Shown piece by piece: positions 21,801 to 33,800 of a stretch of DNA of 64,000 nucleotides. A program made the position numbers. The stretch is from Plasmodiophora brassicae (lineage: Eukaryota), in NCBI GenBank assembly GCA_036867785.1, contig CP145412.1, positions 682,001 through 746,000 of the forward strand. The letters run 5' to 3'. Position 1 is the stretch's first letter. Each line of letters starts with the position of its first letter.

Positions 21801-24800
21801 GCCACGACCGACTCCTTGCGAAGCACCCTCAATAATACCAGGAAGATCCAGAAGCTGAATTTTGGCATTATTGTAGTAGATGACACCGGGAATACAGGTC
21901 AATGTCGTAAACTGCCGGTCTCCAGGTGAGCATCGCGAAGTTGACGAGACGCGTCACTTATGAAACGGAGCACACATACCTCATAGTTTGCCGCTTCGCT
22001 CTTCGTCTCCGTCAAGACAGATAAAAGGGTAGATTTACCCACACTGGGAAATCCCTGGACATATTCCACAGGATCAGTATGACGATGGTCATCAAAGTAC
22101 ACGACCGGTCTACAATCAAAGCGACCCTGGCATCGCCACTTTTCATAACGTCGAATCCTTCACCTTTGGAGCTCCCGGAACCCTTAGGACCTGATCATTA
22201 TTGATTTATAGACGTCATGCACCATTGAATCATCGACCTCAACCTTCCATCAGTTCAGTCCGCAACTTGGCCAGCTTCGCCTTCAGCGTTCCAAGATGGT
22301 AATTTGTCTGCGGGCGACAGCGTCAGCCTTCGCGACCACCAGCATCGGCGTTGCGCATCGCTACCGCTTTGTTCTTCTGGGTTCGGGCCATTTCGGCCTC
22401 GATCTCGGCGATCTTCTCGAGGATCCCCATGGTGGCGTTGCACGCGCGCGTTCAGTGAGTCAGCACTGAATCGGTGCAATTTCCCGTGGCGGACTTCTTC
22501 CCAACCAGACCGACGTCGCTGCTACTGCCATAAGCACAGCCATATTCCATGCACCATTCGACGTGCCATTGTACGCCGAATCCGACAGCATGATCATGCG
22601 AAGCCTGGTCATTGTGTAATATAATGTTAACGCTGCAGTGAATGCTCCCGTGTGGCGACTCTGAAGACATCCTGCCACGGGTGTATTTGCCACAACCCGG
22701 TCAGATAGCAGACGCGGATGGCGACAATGTCCCGGAACATGGTGACGGCTCCGTCGATCAGCGACAATTTCGAGCCAGGAACTTCCGTCCAGTGAATGGC
22801 GACTTCCGCCATGGGAATCCCAAGGCGCCCGGCCATGAATATGAGTTCAACGTCGAATGCCCAGCGCATCAGGTGCAGGTTCGCGAACAAATCCCGGGCC
22901 GATGCTCGCGTGAACAGCTTGAACCCGCACTGGGTAGATGACCGAATGAGCCATTATGAAACGCCAGGCGGCCGGTGATGAGAAGCCTACCTGGGTGTCT
23001 CGAATGTTCACACACGCTACAGCGGCGACAATGACGTGAAACGCATGCATAAGGAAATTCCTGACCCAGTGGCGTTTCGCAATCGCCTGCTCAGCGAGGT
23101 GAGCCCTCGATCCAATTGCAACGCCATGCCCATTCTGCTCAATTCTCTGCAAGCGCACGCCAATCAGCTCGACTAGGCCAGCGAAGTTTGAGGCCCTTAT
23201 ACCTTCAGCGCGTTCTCGAGCTGTTTGACATCGCTGAAACGTGACGCACCATCAGCGTCAACCATAAGCAGATACGCTCCCCGAGCATGCAGCATGCCAG
23301 CCTGGATGGCGGCACCCTTGCCCGCGTTTGGGCTCAACGCCAGAACGCGAATGATATCGGACCCGTTGGCCTTGACGTACGACTGGGCTACCTGTCGAGT
23401 CGCATCCTTGCTGCCATCATCGACGACGATAATCTCGAACGTCTGCTCCGGGTCGTGCTGATGCCGCTGATCCAGGTACCGCATTGCCTCATTCAACATC
23501 GCGGGTAGACGGTCCTGCTCATTGTACGCCGGCACAATCACCGACAGTCGCACCTCGGGTTCGCCCTGCTCGAACAGCGTCGGGAACCGCCGCTCTTCCT
23601 CCGTCTCCGTCCGATACGTTGCCTGCAATCTGAACGGCGACGCCACGTTCAACGTACGCAGAATCGGCGTCAGGAGCCAGTAGACGCCGTAGGCGACTAC
23701 TGCGACGACGGGGACCGCGACGACGACCGCCAGGCCCATGGCCGTCAGGCTGACCTGCGACCTGTCCCCCTGATTTCTGTCTGACGTCTGACCGCCGCGA
23801 CGACGTTTTGGTCAGCTCGGTTTTGCTCCCCGGTTTTGGAAGACTCGCCGGCACTGCTTGTAGGGTGCCGCCAGTGTATTCCACTAAGATAGGTCGATCG
23901 GATGGGGGAGGGGGCAAACTTGGGGGGCAGTTCGTTCGCGCTTGTATGTTATCATCTAGGACGGAATGACACGAGCTTGGTGTCGATGTGGACGACGTTA
24001 TGTCTGATGCTGGGCACGACGATTTGGGAGTCGTCGTCAAGGCCCGATATGAACGAGTTGTGGTACTGTGCCTGCAGTGTCCGCCACATGGTCCACAGGG
24101 ATTCACGCGGGCGTAACGCCTGCAGGAACACGGTGCCCTGAATGGACAGCGACAGCGCCAGAGCTGCTTGGGCCAGGACATAGGTCGGTGCTGAATCGAG
24201 AGACGCCAGGAGCAGCGACGCGAACAGCATACTGCAATGGCTCAGTTCGCCGCATCTTCATCCAGCAGGCGATCGCATACCTGACGCAAGTCAGCAGACC
24301 GATGAGGACGATGCGAATAGAAAAGTTGCGGCGTTTACGACGTTCCTCACTCGAATGCGGCACTGTCTTCATCAACTGTTTGACGATAACTGCGTTTCAG
24401 CGACCACACGTCAGCCATCGTTTTCCACTGAGGCCATCACCTCCACCTGCCTCGCCCGTAAACTAGCACGACACAGACGGCGACGACTTGCCAGACGATA
24501 CCGACGGACAGGGTAAACACGACCTGCACTTCTTCTGCAATTGACGAACCACGTCGGATACGCTACAGCGCGAACGTTCGTTTGCGCGTACCTGGATAAC
24601 GGATGGCCATGACGGTGCTAATCGCCACGTCGCCTAGCAGTGAGACGTTCACGACGATGAAGACGAGTCGGGCAATGCGTTGTCGTTTCGTGGAATCGTT
24701 CCCACTTTGGGCGTGGAACATGGCGTAACCGAGCGTAAAATGCGATATGCCATGGAACTGTAGGTGGTAGGTTTGCATGGTGCGGAAGACGCTGTAAGGG

Positions 24801-30800: not shown

Positions 30801-33800
30801 CGTTCAGAGTTTATTCGCTGTGGCTCCATTTGTCTGCTGAATAGGACTGACGACGCTGGTATGTACCCATGTTTACACATGGCCACGTGCAGCATGCCAG
30901 TGTACAGCTGGGGCAGGGTATCGATGGTGCTGTGGATATGGCGAATGCGGCCGGTGTTTGGATATCGACAGCGATGTTGACGCTGCTTCTGATGGCTCGA
31001 CCGACCTGGGCGGAGAGCGTCTGTATGAAATGGTTAGTACTGGAGTTGCTCATCGACATGTTCTGGTACGATGCTGTCCAAATGTGAACCGTCGTTCGCG
31101 TGTGGCGAATAGGTAGAAGGCGTCTACTACGGAAGGGGACCGCTTGCGCTTCGCGCGGCCGTGTCGTAAACCGGAAGATCGGGGAAGTCAGACTGAACGT
31201 TTCGGATTCTACTACGCAACCACGTCGTTGCTCTGGATGGGGTCATAACATGTCAGAATAACGCCAGCGACATTGGCGATCGTTGATAGCTATTGCGAAA
31301 GGACGAAGAACGAAAGCACAGGCGTGGACTGCGCTTTGGTAGCAAACAGGGTGGCTGAACTCGTGCTGTTCACGGTGGTGGTACGGTCTCCCAATGAATG
31401 CCTACCCGTCTCGGCTATCAGAACGTCGACAACGTACAACCGGAACAAGTCAACGAAATACATAAAACCTCAATGTTCAATAACAGTATAGCAGTCAACG
31501 GGCCTACTGCGTAATCGAGGCTCGATTCGACGACGTCATGGCCGATATCCCTGATGTTGTCGTCGTCGGGCACGTTGCTGTTGTGATCGTCAGTGGGGCA
31601 CCGTCAGACGCCCGTGTCTTTCGCCGTATGGGTCGGAACATGGCAACTCGCGAGGCGCTGTCAAAAGCGCGTCCGTTCAGCAGCAGCCCGAACGCTATGG
31701 TCCACCCGGTAGGCGAATAGAAAAACTCGTAGGAGGAGACGATGATCAACGACCCGCCAACCTGCATCAGCATCGACATGGACAGCGCCAAAATGCAGCG
31801 GCTGATGCGACGTAAGAACGCGTTCAGTGAGCTGGTCTTAACAGTGTCCTGCACTGACGTGGCGACCCGGCTCACCTCCCAGTGATACCTGCACACCTCT
31901 ACAGACAGTCTGTTTGCTCAGCACCGAGAAGGATTAGACAATATCGGATGACGGACCATAGATGCTGTGGAAGCCAACGAGGATTTGTAGAACGAGGAAT
32001 GTGACAGTTACGGTGCCCTGAAAAGCAATTGTCGTGTGGTACTGCGAGAATAAGGTCGACATTGCCGTATTGAGCGACAAAGGAGCAATCGCCAGGGCTG
32101 CAGAACCCCACCACCAGTCGCCACGAAACAGCCTCGTCAGAACCGACGGTTTGTCGACAGGAAACAGCTCATGAAGTTTCCGGTTCCAAACGATAGTCGC
32201 CATGATGCTACAGGCGAACCCCCATCCGCATAGGCCGCACATGAAGAATAGGACGACCGGCGCGGGAAGGTTGCTCGTCGAGCACCACCCTCCAATGACA
32301 ACCACGAGACCAAGAATCGTCGCCGTGATCGCCTCGATGAAAAGCATTGTAAGTTGCAAGCCGCTGATACGATCCCAGATATACGCCAGGCGTCGTTGTG
32401 TGGTGCGACGCTCGACAGGGAAACGCGCTAGAAACCTGTCATTAACGAGAGAAACATGTGTGACCAGGAATGTCGCGGCAGCCAGACCGGCTGCGATCAG
32501 CACAGTGCCAGGCAGATAACGCAGGAACGTCTGGTAATACCATGAACTGAAAACCGGCTCCCAGACGTTCGGGTCAGGGGACACACGGGCCTTCATGCCG
32601 GGCTTAAGGGCCGCATGCAACTCTGGCGATGGACTGATCTGAAGGAACAGCATGTCCAGGCGACGTGTGATGGGAGCCAACTGCGCATCTCTTCGGTACA
32701 GGTTGTATCCAGGCGTTAGGTGCGGCTTAGGGACTATGCTCCAAAGTCAGTAGGGTGCCTAACAATCGGTGGCGGTACAAGGACTGACATAATACAGCCT
32801 TAGCGCCGCCCGTCTGGAAGTCAATATACATCTTCTCGTAGGAGCATGGCGACGGTGGGTTTAAACCGAGGACGACGATCTTGTCCTTGACGTCGCCGAT
32901 GTCAGCTGGGTTACACGGGTCTGCAATCACGACGCGGATAATGCCTTCGATGCCCGGTTGCTTTGGATCTTGGGGCCCAACCGTGGCCGACATGGGCGGG
33001 CTGTATAGAGACACGCGCCCGAACCCTTCGACATCATCGATAACATCGAAAGATGCACGCACGACGACTGCCAGGCAAACCAATAGTCGTAGATCCCTCA
33101 TGACAAGATTTCGACAGGCGGTCAGGTCGCGCAGGAATGCCCGCTTCGTGACTCGGAGAATTCAAATCGAGTCACTGCGCAACGACTAATCCTGTAATCA
33201 ATCCAGGTTTATGGTGGGCATATGTAATCGGTGAGTGATTCGCGTACGTGCTAGCGGCATGGCGTCTGGCCTCATTGCGGACACTGACCGCTGATAATAG
33301 TTCCAAATCGTCGAGATCCAGAACGTGTTCGACCGGAACAAACGCTGCAAAGAACAGGATGCGAGCAGAGTAGATACTCGACTGTGGTTGACGACAGCAG
33401 GCGTCTGATGGTGGCACATCTGTGCCATCGGGCCACAGATGACCACCCCGGCAGACCTTGTATGTGACAGATGGCGACGTCAGATCACCCGCATATCGAG
33501 AAGGCGTCTGCGCAACACATTGATAGATTCGATTGTCGCATTCAGGTCGTCATCAGGAGCATCAGTAATTTCGTCACTTGGTGTCTACGAAATGACCATG
33601 AGCACTTACTTTAGTTAACAAACCGATGTGTTATTACCAATGAGTTTCGACGAAAACGTGGCTAGCGCGGTTCGAAGCAAGCTTCAGCATATTATTTTCC
33701 AGAGAGTTGTATCCCTTTGACCAAATCATGTTCGGTACCTGACGTTTCTGCAGCTTGTTGCTGATCTCGCCGACCAGGAGATCAGAAAGCCTGAGCCCAT

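Follow-up and report, generated by a model that had tools for sequence, protein, structure and literature searches.

The PA domains of VSR1, a sorting receptor, and of ZNRF3 bind peptide or protein ligands. SPPL2 provides the only known architecture in which a PA domain is joined to a polytopic membrane domain, there one of nine helices with YD, GxGD, and PAL motifs, and the GOST proteins (TMEM87, GPR107/108, and Wntless) combine a GOLD domain with seven helices. Here we describe another combination, encoded in a 64,000-nucleotide stretch of the Plasmodiophora brassicae genome (the window). Four genes, designated A to D, lie in an array on its minus strand from position 23952 (stop codon of D) to position 33101 (start codon of C). 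For A, B, and C, sequence profiles and structure prediction make it very probable that the product carries a PA ectodomain on a seven-helix bundle with the fold of class A G protein-coupled receptors (GPCRs). Both folds are known in themselves; what our analysis suggests is new is their union in one polypeptide. An earlier reading of the window from its letters alone (the sequence-only reading) had placed four minus-strand genes in this interval, and spliced transcript contigs and clean translations agree with it. The genes and the predicted parts of their products are as follows.

25886..27454, minus strand: gene A, 488 amino acids (exons 27454-27142, 27087-26311, and 26262-25886, stop codon included)
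26915..27391, minus strand: gene A, predicted PA ectodomain and conserved stalk, residues 22-162 (intron 27088-27141 inside)
26000..26878, minus strand: gene A, predicted seven-helix domain, residues 175-451 (intron 26263-26310 inside)
25889..25999, minus strand: gene A, predicted cytosolic tail, residues 452-488, basic and Ser/Thr-rich
28675..30228, minus strand: gene B, 483 amino acids (exons 30228-29916, 29861-29085, and 29036-28675)
29689..30165, minus strand: gene B, predicted PA ectodomain and stalk, same parts as in A
28774..29652, minus strand: gene B, predicted seven-helix domain, same part as in A
28678..28773, minus strand: gene B, predicted tail
31504..33101, minus strand: gene C, 494 amino acids (exons 33101-32789, 32733-31957, and 31898-31504)
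32561..33038, minus strand: gene C, predicted PA ectodomain and stalk, same parts as in A
31636..32524, minus strand: gene C, predicted seven-helix domain, same part as in A
31507..31635, minus strand: gene C, predicted tail
23952..25500, minus strand: gene D, 442 amino acids (exons 25500-24996, 24942-24592, 24534-24451, 24389-24281, and 24231-23952)

Past a hydrophobic N-terminal leader that we judged by eye to be a signal peptide, A, B, and C each carry an ectodomain that profile comparison and modeling identify as a compact PA domain of the disulfide type, spanning approximately residues 49-156. The two cysteines that bracket it are nearly invariant (C63 in 33 and C86 in all 34 of 34 family members), and the stalk that follows bears the motif PDxNVW in 20 of 35 sequences, with D158, N160, and W162 each conserved in at least 80%. 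As a reference for the domain we collected 30 bacterial PF02225 matches above the Pfam cutoff, from 27 of 121 genomes, and used 29 of them (L017, which contains a stop codon, was dropped). In hhalign, the family ectodomain aligned to these segments with a probability of 95.6% (E value 1.1e-8, 107 columns, score 53.9) and with both cysteines matched; the reversed control reached 0.14%, the two halves of the transmembrane (TM) domain reached 0.08%, and 60 column shuffles scored 8.7 ± 1.7, with a maximum of 15.9. When a profile of 34 full-length members was searched against the PDB, the top match was the PA insert of a Pseudomonas M28 aminopeptidase/keratinase (E value 0.044), and here too both cysteines were aligned. 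PA is also the sole Pfam family to recur among the members, 8 of 38 matching it at an E value of ≤1.

Structure prediction points the same way. The AlphaFold2 model of A contains an alpha/beta ectodomain (pLDDT 80-93), and a Foldseek search with the whole model paired it with the PA domain of VSR1 (TM-score 0.54, root-mean-square deviation [rmsd] 4.7 Å, 163-165 columns, probability 1.00) and with the ectodomains of ZNRF3/RNF43 (TM-score 0.38-0.47), the PA matches having E values of 0.028-0.08. The other PA matches were PA aminopeptidases, a PA-bearing PNGase, and ScpA. These results bear out the PA fold that had been proposed for the region. In a database search, the long open frame of gene A matched solely records named "PA domain-containing protein [Plasmodiophora brassicae]"; the public labels on A and B already name this domain.

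C-terminal to the stalk, hydropathy averaged over the family shows, in addition to the leader, six strong segments and an amphipathic seventh (residues 428-450) that contains a conserved Arg. The mean number of Lys and Arg residues per loop alternates (7.0, 0.2, 5.4, 0.2, 5.9, and 0.18, then 4.2 in the first 20 residues of the tail, 451-470), from which, by the positive-inside rule, we infer seven crossings with the N terminus outside and the C terminus inside. AlphaFold2, given an alignment of 34 sequences, modeled A with a mean pLDDT of 82.3 and a pTM of 0.80, confidence dropping to low values solely in leader and tail (pLDDT of <50 at residues 458-485). The model has long helices at residues 169-208, 230-252, 262-294, 312-334, 340-379, 385-418, and 426-450, plus short helices within the first and second inner loops; its outer loops are approximately 15, 12, and 7 residues long, and its inner loops, of approximately 37, 33, and 33 residues, are basic. 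Among the polar residues buried in the bundle, E238 (TM2) and R440 (TM7) are conserved, and D326 (TM4) is found in 29 of 34 members. The disordered tail is enriched in Ser and Thr: the C-terminal 40 residues of A, B, and C include 11, 13, and 17 of them, respectively, against 16 to 17% protein-wide.

Superposition of this model with VIA-align 2 on 48,161 representative chains returned class A GPCRs at all of the top 50 positions (Z scores of 18.5 to 15.4; rmsd 3.8-7.1 Å and below 5 Å for 47 of the 50; 235-276 residues aligned at 4-11% identity, over model residues ~163-459). The best match was MRGPRD (Z score 18.5, rmsd 3.9 Å), of which 244 of 252 residues were aligned. Helical models without a true match give a best score of ~14 and, at rank 50, a score of 6 (up to 13); because the Z scores exceed this yardstick at both places, the superposition on GPCRs stands above background. 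The best 50 Foldseek rows against the PDB (E values of 0.026-0.087) consisted solely of PA domains and GPCRs, apart from one adiponectin receptor. Judged from the model, the membrane domain of A to C would be a bundle of seven helices of class A GPCR type with its N terminus outside and its C terminus in the cytosol. The seven hydrophobic helices, the GPCR-like fold, and the Ser/Thr-rich tail of the sequence-only reading all hold for these three proteins.

Several observations weigh against taking the family as GPCR-like receptors with a PA sensor. The Pfam PA cutoff of 23.9 bits is never reached (A, 17.6; B, 18.1; the highest scores being 20.9 for P0034 and 20.8 for P0075). Over the membrane domain, no Pfam family is found in the 104 family sequences scanned, PDB sequence-profile searches return nothing, and at the level of sequence there is no link to any GPCR family. 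Of the motifs typical of class A, NPxxY is absent from all 35 sequences and [DE]RY is present in 4 of the 35, none of them A, B, or D; the disulfide between TM3 and the second outer loop that is typical of GPCRs is not conserved in the family alignment, and the first inner loop is longer than is usual for a GPCR. The fold match comes from a single predicted model built on 34 sequences, its Foldseek search of the PDB yielded nothing at an E value of ≤0.001 (best, 0.026), and seven-helix bundles may resemble each other without sharing a function. At the buried TM4 position, Asp326 is replaced by Ser in A (26424-26426) and B (29198-29200) and by Asn in C (32070-32072; codon positions are approximate), which reads as a clade-specific change at a buried polar position. 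Finally, the signals that tie D to the family are weak (HH probabilities of 19-21% and 3.3%).

We also compared the membrane domain with other families. Two Pfam families, 7tm_7 and Srh, were each hit by 1 of 38 members, below the Pfam cutoff, and no Pfam family recurs over this domain; single-sequence PDB searches with P0075 and P0069 gave no match. Relative to unrelated control pairs, which reach 0.5-1.1% in hhalign, we rejected PAQR/HlyIII (0.34%, 25 HlyIII segments), microbial rhodopsins (0.10%, 9 sequences), and 7TMR-DISM (0.13%, 18 segments). An internal 3+1+3 repeat was likewise rejected, TM1-3 giving 4-5% against TM4-7 or TM5-7. For GPR137 and THH1-TOM1-TOM3 there was no Pfam match, and the feature scores of the distant family member P0052 (0.75-0.76) are at chance level; no solved structure of either group is among the top 50 VIA-align matches. 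That GOST proteins, other GPCR classes, and TOM1 are absent from the top 50 VIA-align matches is not evidence against them. Pfam RING and EGF models matched neither A, B, nor 21 other members, Peptidase_A22B, GOLD, and Lung_7-TM_R models gave no match in the members scanned, and GxGD occurs in 0 of 35 sequences, with no conserved YD or PAL column, in keeping with the earlier remark that protease, RING, and GxGD motifs are not visible.

Gene D stands apart. Its product has a leader, an ectodomain of ~125 amino acids, and seven hydrophobic segments, and BLAST/tblastn, phmmer, and hmmsearch detect no significant likeness to A to C or the family (best phmmer E value, 0.093 among 80 sequences); there is also no nucleotide match to A to C by blastn. 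Against the family hidden Markov model it scores 7.7 bits, a value reached by 9 of 498 local shuffles. In hhalign, the part of D from inner loop 1 through helix 7 runs colinear with the family over 203 columns (score 33.8, probability 20.8%), and this score was reached by 0 of 150 local-composition shuffles (mean 18.6, maximum 29.8). A comparison with other membrane proteins gave a probability of 19% against the family versus 0.17-0.93% (scores of 13-19) against four unrelated polytopic families. The ectodomain of D matches the PA profile weakly (score 18.5, probability 3.3%, 51 columns in register), with 0 of 200 shuffles reaching that score (mean 10.5, maximum 17.9); true members compared as single sequences score 15.9-39.0, a range that includes the value for D. 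Against the family ectodomain profile it gives no signal (13.9, versus 11.4 ± 2.1 for shuffles), and it has no Pfam PA match at an E value of ≤10. In both D and A a phase-1 intron lies just past TM5, within 3 aligned residues. We consider it likely that D belongs to the A-C family as an early branch that has diverged fast.

The sequence-only reading, which had called A, B, and C clear paralogues and D divergent and had given all four a signal peptide and a Cys-bracketed PA-like ectodomain, is therefore partly confirmed: it stands for A to C, the leader being judged by eye, but in D, with cysteines at positions 70, 82, and 87, the first bracketing Cys is absent and the PA match is weak. The tail of D is not Ser/Thr-rich either (6 of 40 residues), a feature that had been claimed for A to C only. 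With this caveat about D, the interpretation of the array as GPCR-like PA receptors is supported.

All four genes are transcribed and spliced. The evidence consists of contigs from four public runs (four studies) placed on positions 23900-33200; the runs are presumed to be RNA, and we took spliced joints, not depth, as proof of transcription and did not use depth to rank genes. Eight of the 10 introns in our models are spliced out in all four runs and one further intron in two. In gene A, whose translation is identical to the stored protein P0001, these are introns 27088-27141 and 26263-26310 (4 of 4 runs). Loose ends of adapter and poly(T) at 25843-25868 in three runs mark the 3' end of its polyadenylated mRNA, which stops 20-45 nucleotides past the stop codon. 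Contigs of D extend to 25851, which makes the 5' end of D meet or overlap the 3' end of A, in line with a compact genome. One run (X16) contains a 66-nucleotide minus-strand intron, 27559-27624, in the 5' leader of A, upstream of the start codon.

Gene B is likewise identical in translation to a stored protein (P0002). Its first intron (29862-29915) is spliced out in two of four runs; its second lies in an uncovered stretch (28876-29186) and is modeled from the annotation and from likeness to A. Both introns of gene C (32734-32788 and 31899-31956) are removed in all four runs, its reading frame is clean, and tblastn aligns it with P0001 in three pieces at 69-74% identity. A contig of run X1 is spliced from the stop codon of C to position 31400 (31401-31506 removed), which would replace the stop and yield a 530-amino-acid isoform with a longer tail.

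The four introns of gene D (24943-24995, 53 nucleotides; 24535-24591, 57; 24390-24450, 61; and 24232-24280, 49) are spliced out in all four runs, the third (24390-24450) with GC-AG instead of GT-AG ends in each. The public model of D (P0069/PBRA_003179, 408 amino acids) agrees with ours over its first 349 residues and then continues into an unrelated 59-residue tail; because it retains intron 24232-24280, helix 6 is cut short and helix 7 is missing altogether. Our analysis corrects this gene model from 408 to 442 amino acids.

The plus strand, too, has GT..AG joints (27895-27958, 30668-30714, and 30750-30804), located in the duplicated spacers that separate B from A and C from B, within contigs that bear minus-strand genes as well. 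The longest spliced plus-strand open frame there is at most 131 codons, and these joints may belong to antisense or noncoding transcripts.

Comparison of the paralogues dates the growth of the array. A and B share 85% of their residues, and each shares 69% with C. At the nucleotide level, the A and B units are 87.7% identical over 2259 bases by blastn, and the match of C to A and B, at 75-77%, is confined to coding sequence. The repeated units of A and B are as follows.

25765..30753, minus strand: recent tandem duplication; unit 25765-27998 (A and ~540 nucleotides upstream) and unit 28539-30753 (B and its upstream sequence)

The synonymous substitution rate (dS) is 0.14 for A-B and 0.83-0.85 for A/B-C, and the ratio of nonsynonymous to synonymous rates (dN/dS) is 0.49 and 0.23, respectively; the ectodomain evolves no faster than the TM domain, and the tails are the most diverged part (21-26% identity between paralogues). 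As far as sequence divergence tells, the A-B duplication is recent, that of C is older, and the genes are under purifying selection. In a quickly computed maximum-likelihood tree with 30 members of the family, A groups with B (SH-aLRT support 99%) and both with C (100%), and this clade adjoins PBRA_000777.

The family extends well beyond the array. With A as the query, phmmer found 56 clusters at an E value of ≤1e-3 among 1.84 billion representatives (35 at ≤1e-10 and 23 at ≤1e-30). Thirty representative clusters were looked up and 25 were not; the 30 comprise 15 from other P. brassicae loci, 1 from Spongospora subterranea, 2 from chytrids (Clydaea vesicula and Lobulomyces angularis), and 12 without a name. 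P. brassicae has at least 19 such genes, expressed or annotated (the 15, A, B, and C, and the second gene of the PBTT_03890/PBTT_03891 pair), D being a divergent twentieth. That pair (P0009/P0070), elsewhere in the genome, is another case of adjacent, near-identical family genes and indicates that tandem duplication is a recurrent mode of growth of the family. A feature-based lookup with P0052 returned further eukaryote clusters, most commonly labeled Endomyxa and Zoopagomycota, at scores of 0.95-0.96; a homologue search with the family alignment A1 returned only the window's own three proteins. These relationships, read from sequence similarity, place the family in Rhizaria and early-diverging fungi, and it is not limited to the P. 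brassicae lineage. The lineage expansion that had been proposed is upheld by the P. brassicae count, with the addition that Spongospora and two chytrids share the family.

Two entries in this set call for comment. The Clydaea vesicula and Lobulomyces angularis proteins (P0034/P0075 and P0041/P0076) fall in the same 90% clusters, with tree branches of 0-0.002; such closeness is unusual for two genera, and a mislabeled or shared sample is possible. The P. brassicae protein P0093 (SPQ95031.1, 714 amino acids) combines a weak PA match at residues 83-138 with C2H2 zinc fingers at residues 545-650 and is probably two genes merged by annotation.

The genes that flank the array are ordinary:

23197..23739: GT2 (ALG5-like) glycosyltransferase gene, array neighbor
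34505..35587: AstE/AspA-type hydrolase gene, array neighbor

Genes farther away encode a DEAD-box helicase, a carbamoyltransferase, a poly(A)-binding-type protein, a WD40 protein, and a histone deacetylase. Introns in the region are short, with GT..AG ends and ~50 nucleotides each. Between 22000 and 35000 we found no Rfam families, tRNAs, or tandem repeats; a scan of the same interval for bacterial promoters and terminators, which is inapplicable to a eukaryote, gave fewer sites than shuffles did.

How might such a protein work? The PA domain would face the outside or an organelle lumen and bind a peptide or protein ligand, as the PA domains of VSR1, ZNRF3/RNF43, and PA-bearing peptidases do. 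The rigid, conserved stalk (PDxNVW...SWxYQ) could relay binding to the helix bundle, where the buried E238 and R440, and D326 in most members, may take part in a switch. Next, a cytosolic transducer would dock on the tail and on the inner loops, which are long and basic; G proteins of the heterotrimeric type are candidates, as is some other partner in a scheme where the tail is phosphorylated. By duplicating, in tandem and to scattered sites, while held under purifying selection, the family would have reached a repertoire of at least 19 receptors. Their likeliest use would be to let a parasite that depends on finding plant cells and living inside them sense cues from its host or surroundings. 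Taken whole (a receptor family with a PA domain that binds ligand, a seven-helix bundle that signals, and a role in sensing host or environment), we regard this explanation as somewhat more probable than its negation. For a sensing and signaling function by itself, we see the chances as evenly balanced. More tentatively, the proteins may form an undescribed "PA-7TM" class that reads host or soil peptide cues, expanded as a chemosensory repertoire in plasmodiophorids, chytrids, and perhaps zoopagomycetes and serving host finding or intracellular life in P. brassicae; we hold this broader proposal to be possible but doubtful.

The strongest competing explanation is that these proteins are cargo or sorting receptors, or factors of endomembrane trafficking, whose luminal PA domain binds sorting signals and whose seven-helix part is a nonsignaling scaffold of the GOST kind. 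VSR1, which contributes the closest solved PA domains by TM-score, is itself a sorting receptor, the order of a luminal beta-rich domain, seven helices, and a short tail parallels the GOST layout, and a plasma membrane location has no support in the present evidence. The top 50 structural neighbors, however, are signaling class A GPCRs with no GOST protein listed (which does not by itself exclude an unlisted family), Pfam GOLD and Lung_7-TM_R do not match, a set of 19 or more paralogues, in a genome that is compact, suits sensing better than housekeeping sorting, and basic Ser/Thr-rich tails are typical of regulated receptors. We consider this explanation unlikely. A 2025 eLife catalogue of GPCRs counts GPR107/108, TMEM87, and TMEM145 among the GPCR-fold families.

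Much less probable is a kinship with the fungal TRP-like proteins Pkd2/Flc (Pfam TRP, PF06011), under which the family would consist of transporters or ion channels. "TRP C-terminal domain-containing protein" is the public name of D (P0069) and of the paralogues P0005 and P0082/P0083, and the family has conserved buried charges in E238, D326, and R440. We could not reproduce the PF06011 label for P0069, P0005, P0082, or P0083 at an E value of ≤10, a search in which the HMMER filters drop most matches above an E value of ~0.1. Pkd2 is described as a signal peptide, a 147-amino-acid Ig-like outer domain, a 405-amino-acid membrane domain of nine helices, and a tail (bioRxiv 10.1101/2022.08.11.503631); the layout is similar, but here the helices number seven and the outer domain is PA, the structural neighbors are GPCRs and not channels, and there is no internal repeat such as that of 3+1+3 transporters. 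Degenerate SPPL2-type intramembrane proteases that have lost catalysis are close to refuted, for although a PA domain leads directly into many helices as in SPPL2a/b and GxGF is found in TM3 of 9 of 35 sequences, the helices number seven and not nine, GxGD and conserved YD or PAL columns are missing, Peptidase_A22B does not match, and the TM domain, compared in hhalign with 11 presenilin/SPP homologues from archaea, each of which has GxGD, reaches 0.11%, versus 1.0-1.1% for control pairs.

The sequence-only reading had not recognized the architecture as described, and the literature agrees with it as far as listings and abstracts go: they contain no account of a PA-7TM protein, and a PA domain is nowhere mentioned in the accessible text of the 2025 eLife catalogue, which covers GPCR families and the additional domains they carry. 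P. brassicae genome papers and reviews, in their accessible parts, do not mention the family, and PBRA identifiers are absent from main texts. Nor does the accessible literature report a characterized P. brassicae receptor. For an active GPCR pathway in this organism, reviews refer to Bi et al. 2019; that work may already list some genes of the array, which would lower the novelty of the label GPCR and not that of the PA fusion. Sequence methods have missed the family since no Pfam model exists for it.

If PA-domain receptors of GPCR fold are what these genes encode, they would supply concrete candidates for host sensing in clubroot by resting spores and zoospores and for the reading of the host cell by the plasmodium. 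The PA fold is known to bind peptides and proteins, and recombinant ectodomains could for that reason serve as direct baits in a search for ligands. To the evolution of GPCRs these genes would contribute a new type of ectodomain and a family common to Rhizaria and early-diverging fungi, expanded in a major crop parasite and present in chytrids.

Set beside known systems, the predicted proteins show both likenesses and differences. With class A GPCRs (MRGPRD, 9dqj; P2Y1, 9jcl; EP1, 9m1h; GPR84, 8j18) they would share the seven-helix bundle, the N-out/C-in orientation, and a disordered Ser/Thr-rich tail, and the superposition (Z scores of 15.4-18.5 over 235-276 residues) takes in nearly the entire receptor chain. 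Unlike those receptors, they have only 4-11% identity to them, lack NPxxY and a conserved DRY, combine very short outer loops with long basic inner loops, and begin with a PA domain. That domain has the fold seen in VSR1 (4tjv and 9l4o), ZNRF3/RNF43 (4c9u and 4kng), and M28 aminopeptidases (2ek8 and PaAP, 8acr); the PDB entry titles of the VSR1 and ZNRF3 matches refer to complexes with cargo or R-spondin. Relative to the PA aminopeptidase and bacterial PA domains, the Cys pair and the strands "GA.A.ii" and "iP.l.i" are aligned. The family PA domain is shorter, a loop of ~19 residues after the GA strand being absent in the alignment with the aminopeptidase PA insert, and scores below the Pfam cutoff. 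It is fused to seven helices, whereas the others are joined to EGF repeats and one helix (VSR), to a RING finger (RNF13, RMR, and ZNRF3), or to a peptidase.

Two further families share the order of parts. SPPL2a/b/c likewise place a luminal or outer PA domain before a polytopic domain, from which the family differs in helix number, in its lack of GxGD, and in its negligible hhalign likeness to SPP homologues. Pkd2/Flc proteins have the same sequence of signal peptide, outer domain of ~150 amino acids, polytopic domain, and disordered tail, and the PA domain and the seven helices packed into ~280 amino acids set the family apart from the Ig-like outer domain and the nine helices in 405 amino acids of Pkd2.

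A parallel in logic is offered by the LGR/glycoprotein hormone, class C, and adhesion GPCRs, in which a protein ligand is caught by the ectodomain and its arrival signaled to a seven-helix domain, as is predicted here; the Foldseek rows include chains of LGR, LHCGR, and FSHR. Their ectodomains are leucine-rich repeat, Venus-flytrap, or GAIN domains, and that of the family is PA. In vertebrates, the PA protein ZNRF3 and the GPCR LGR4/5 are known to come together only as separate chains bridged by R-spondin; in the P. brassicae family, the two kinds of domain would be carried by a single polypeptide.

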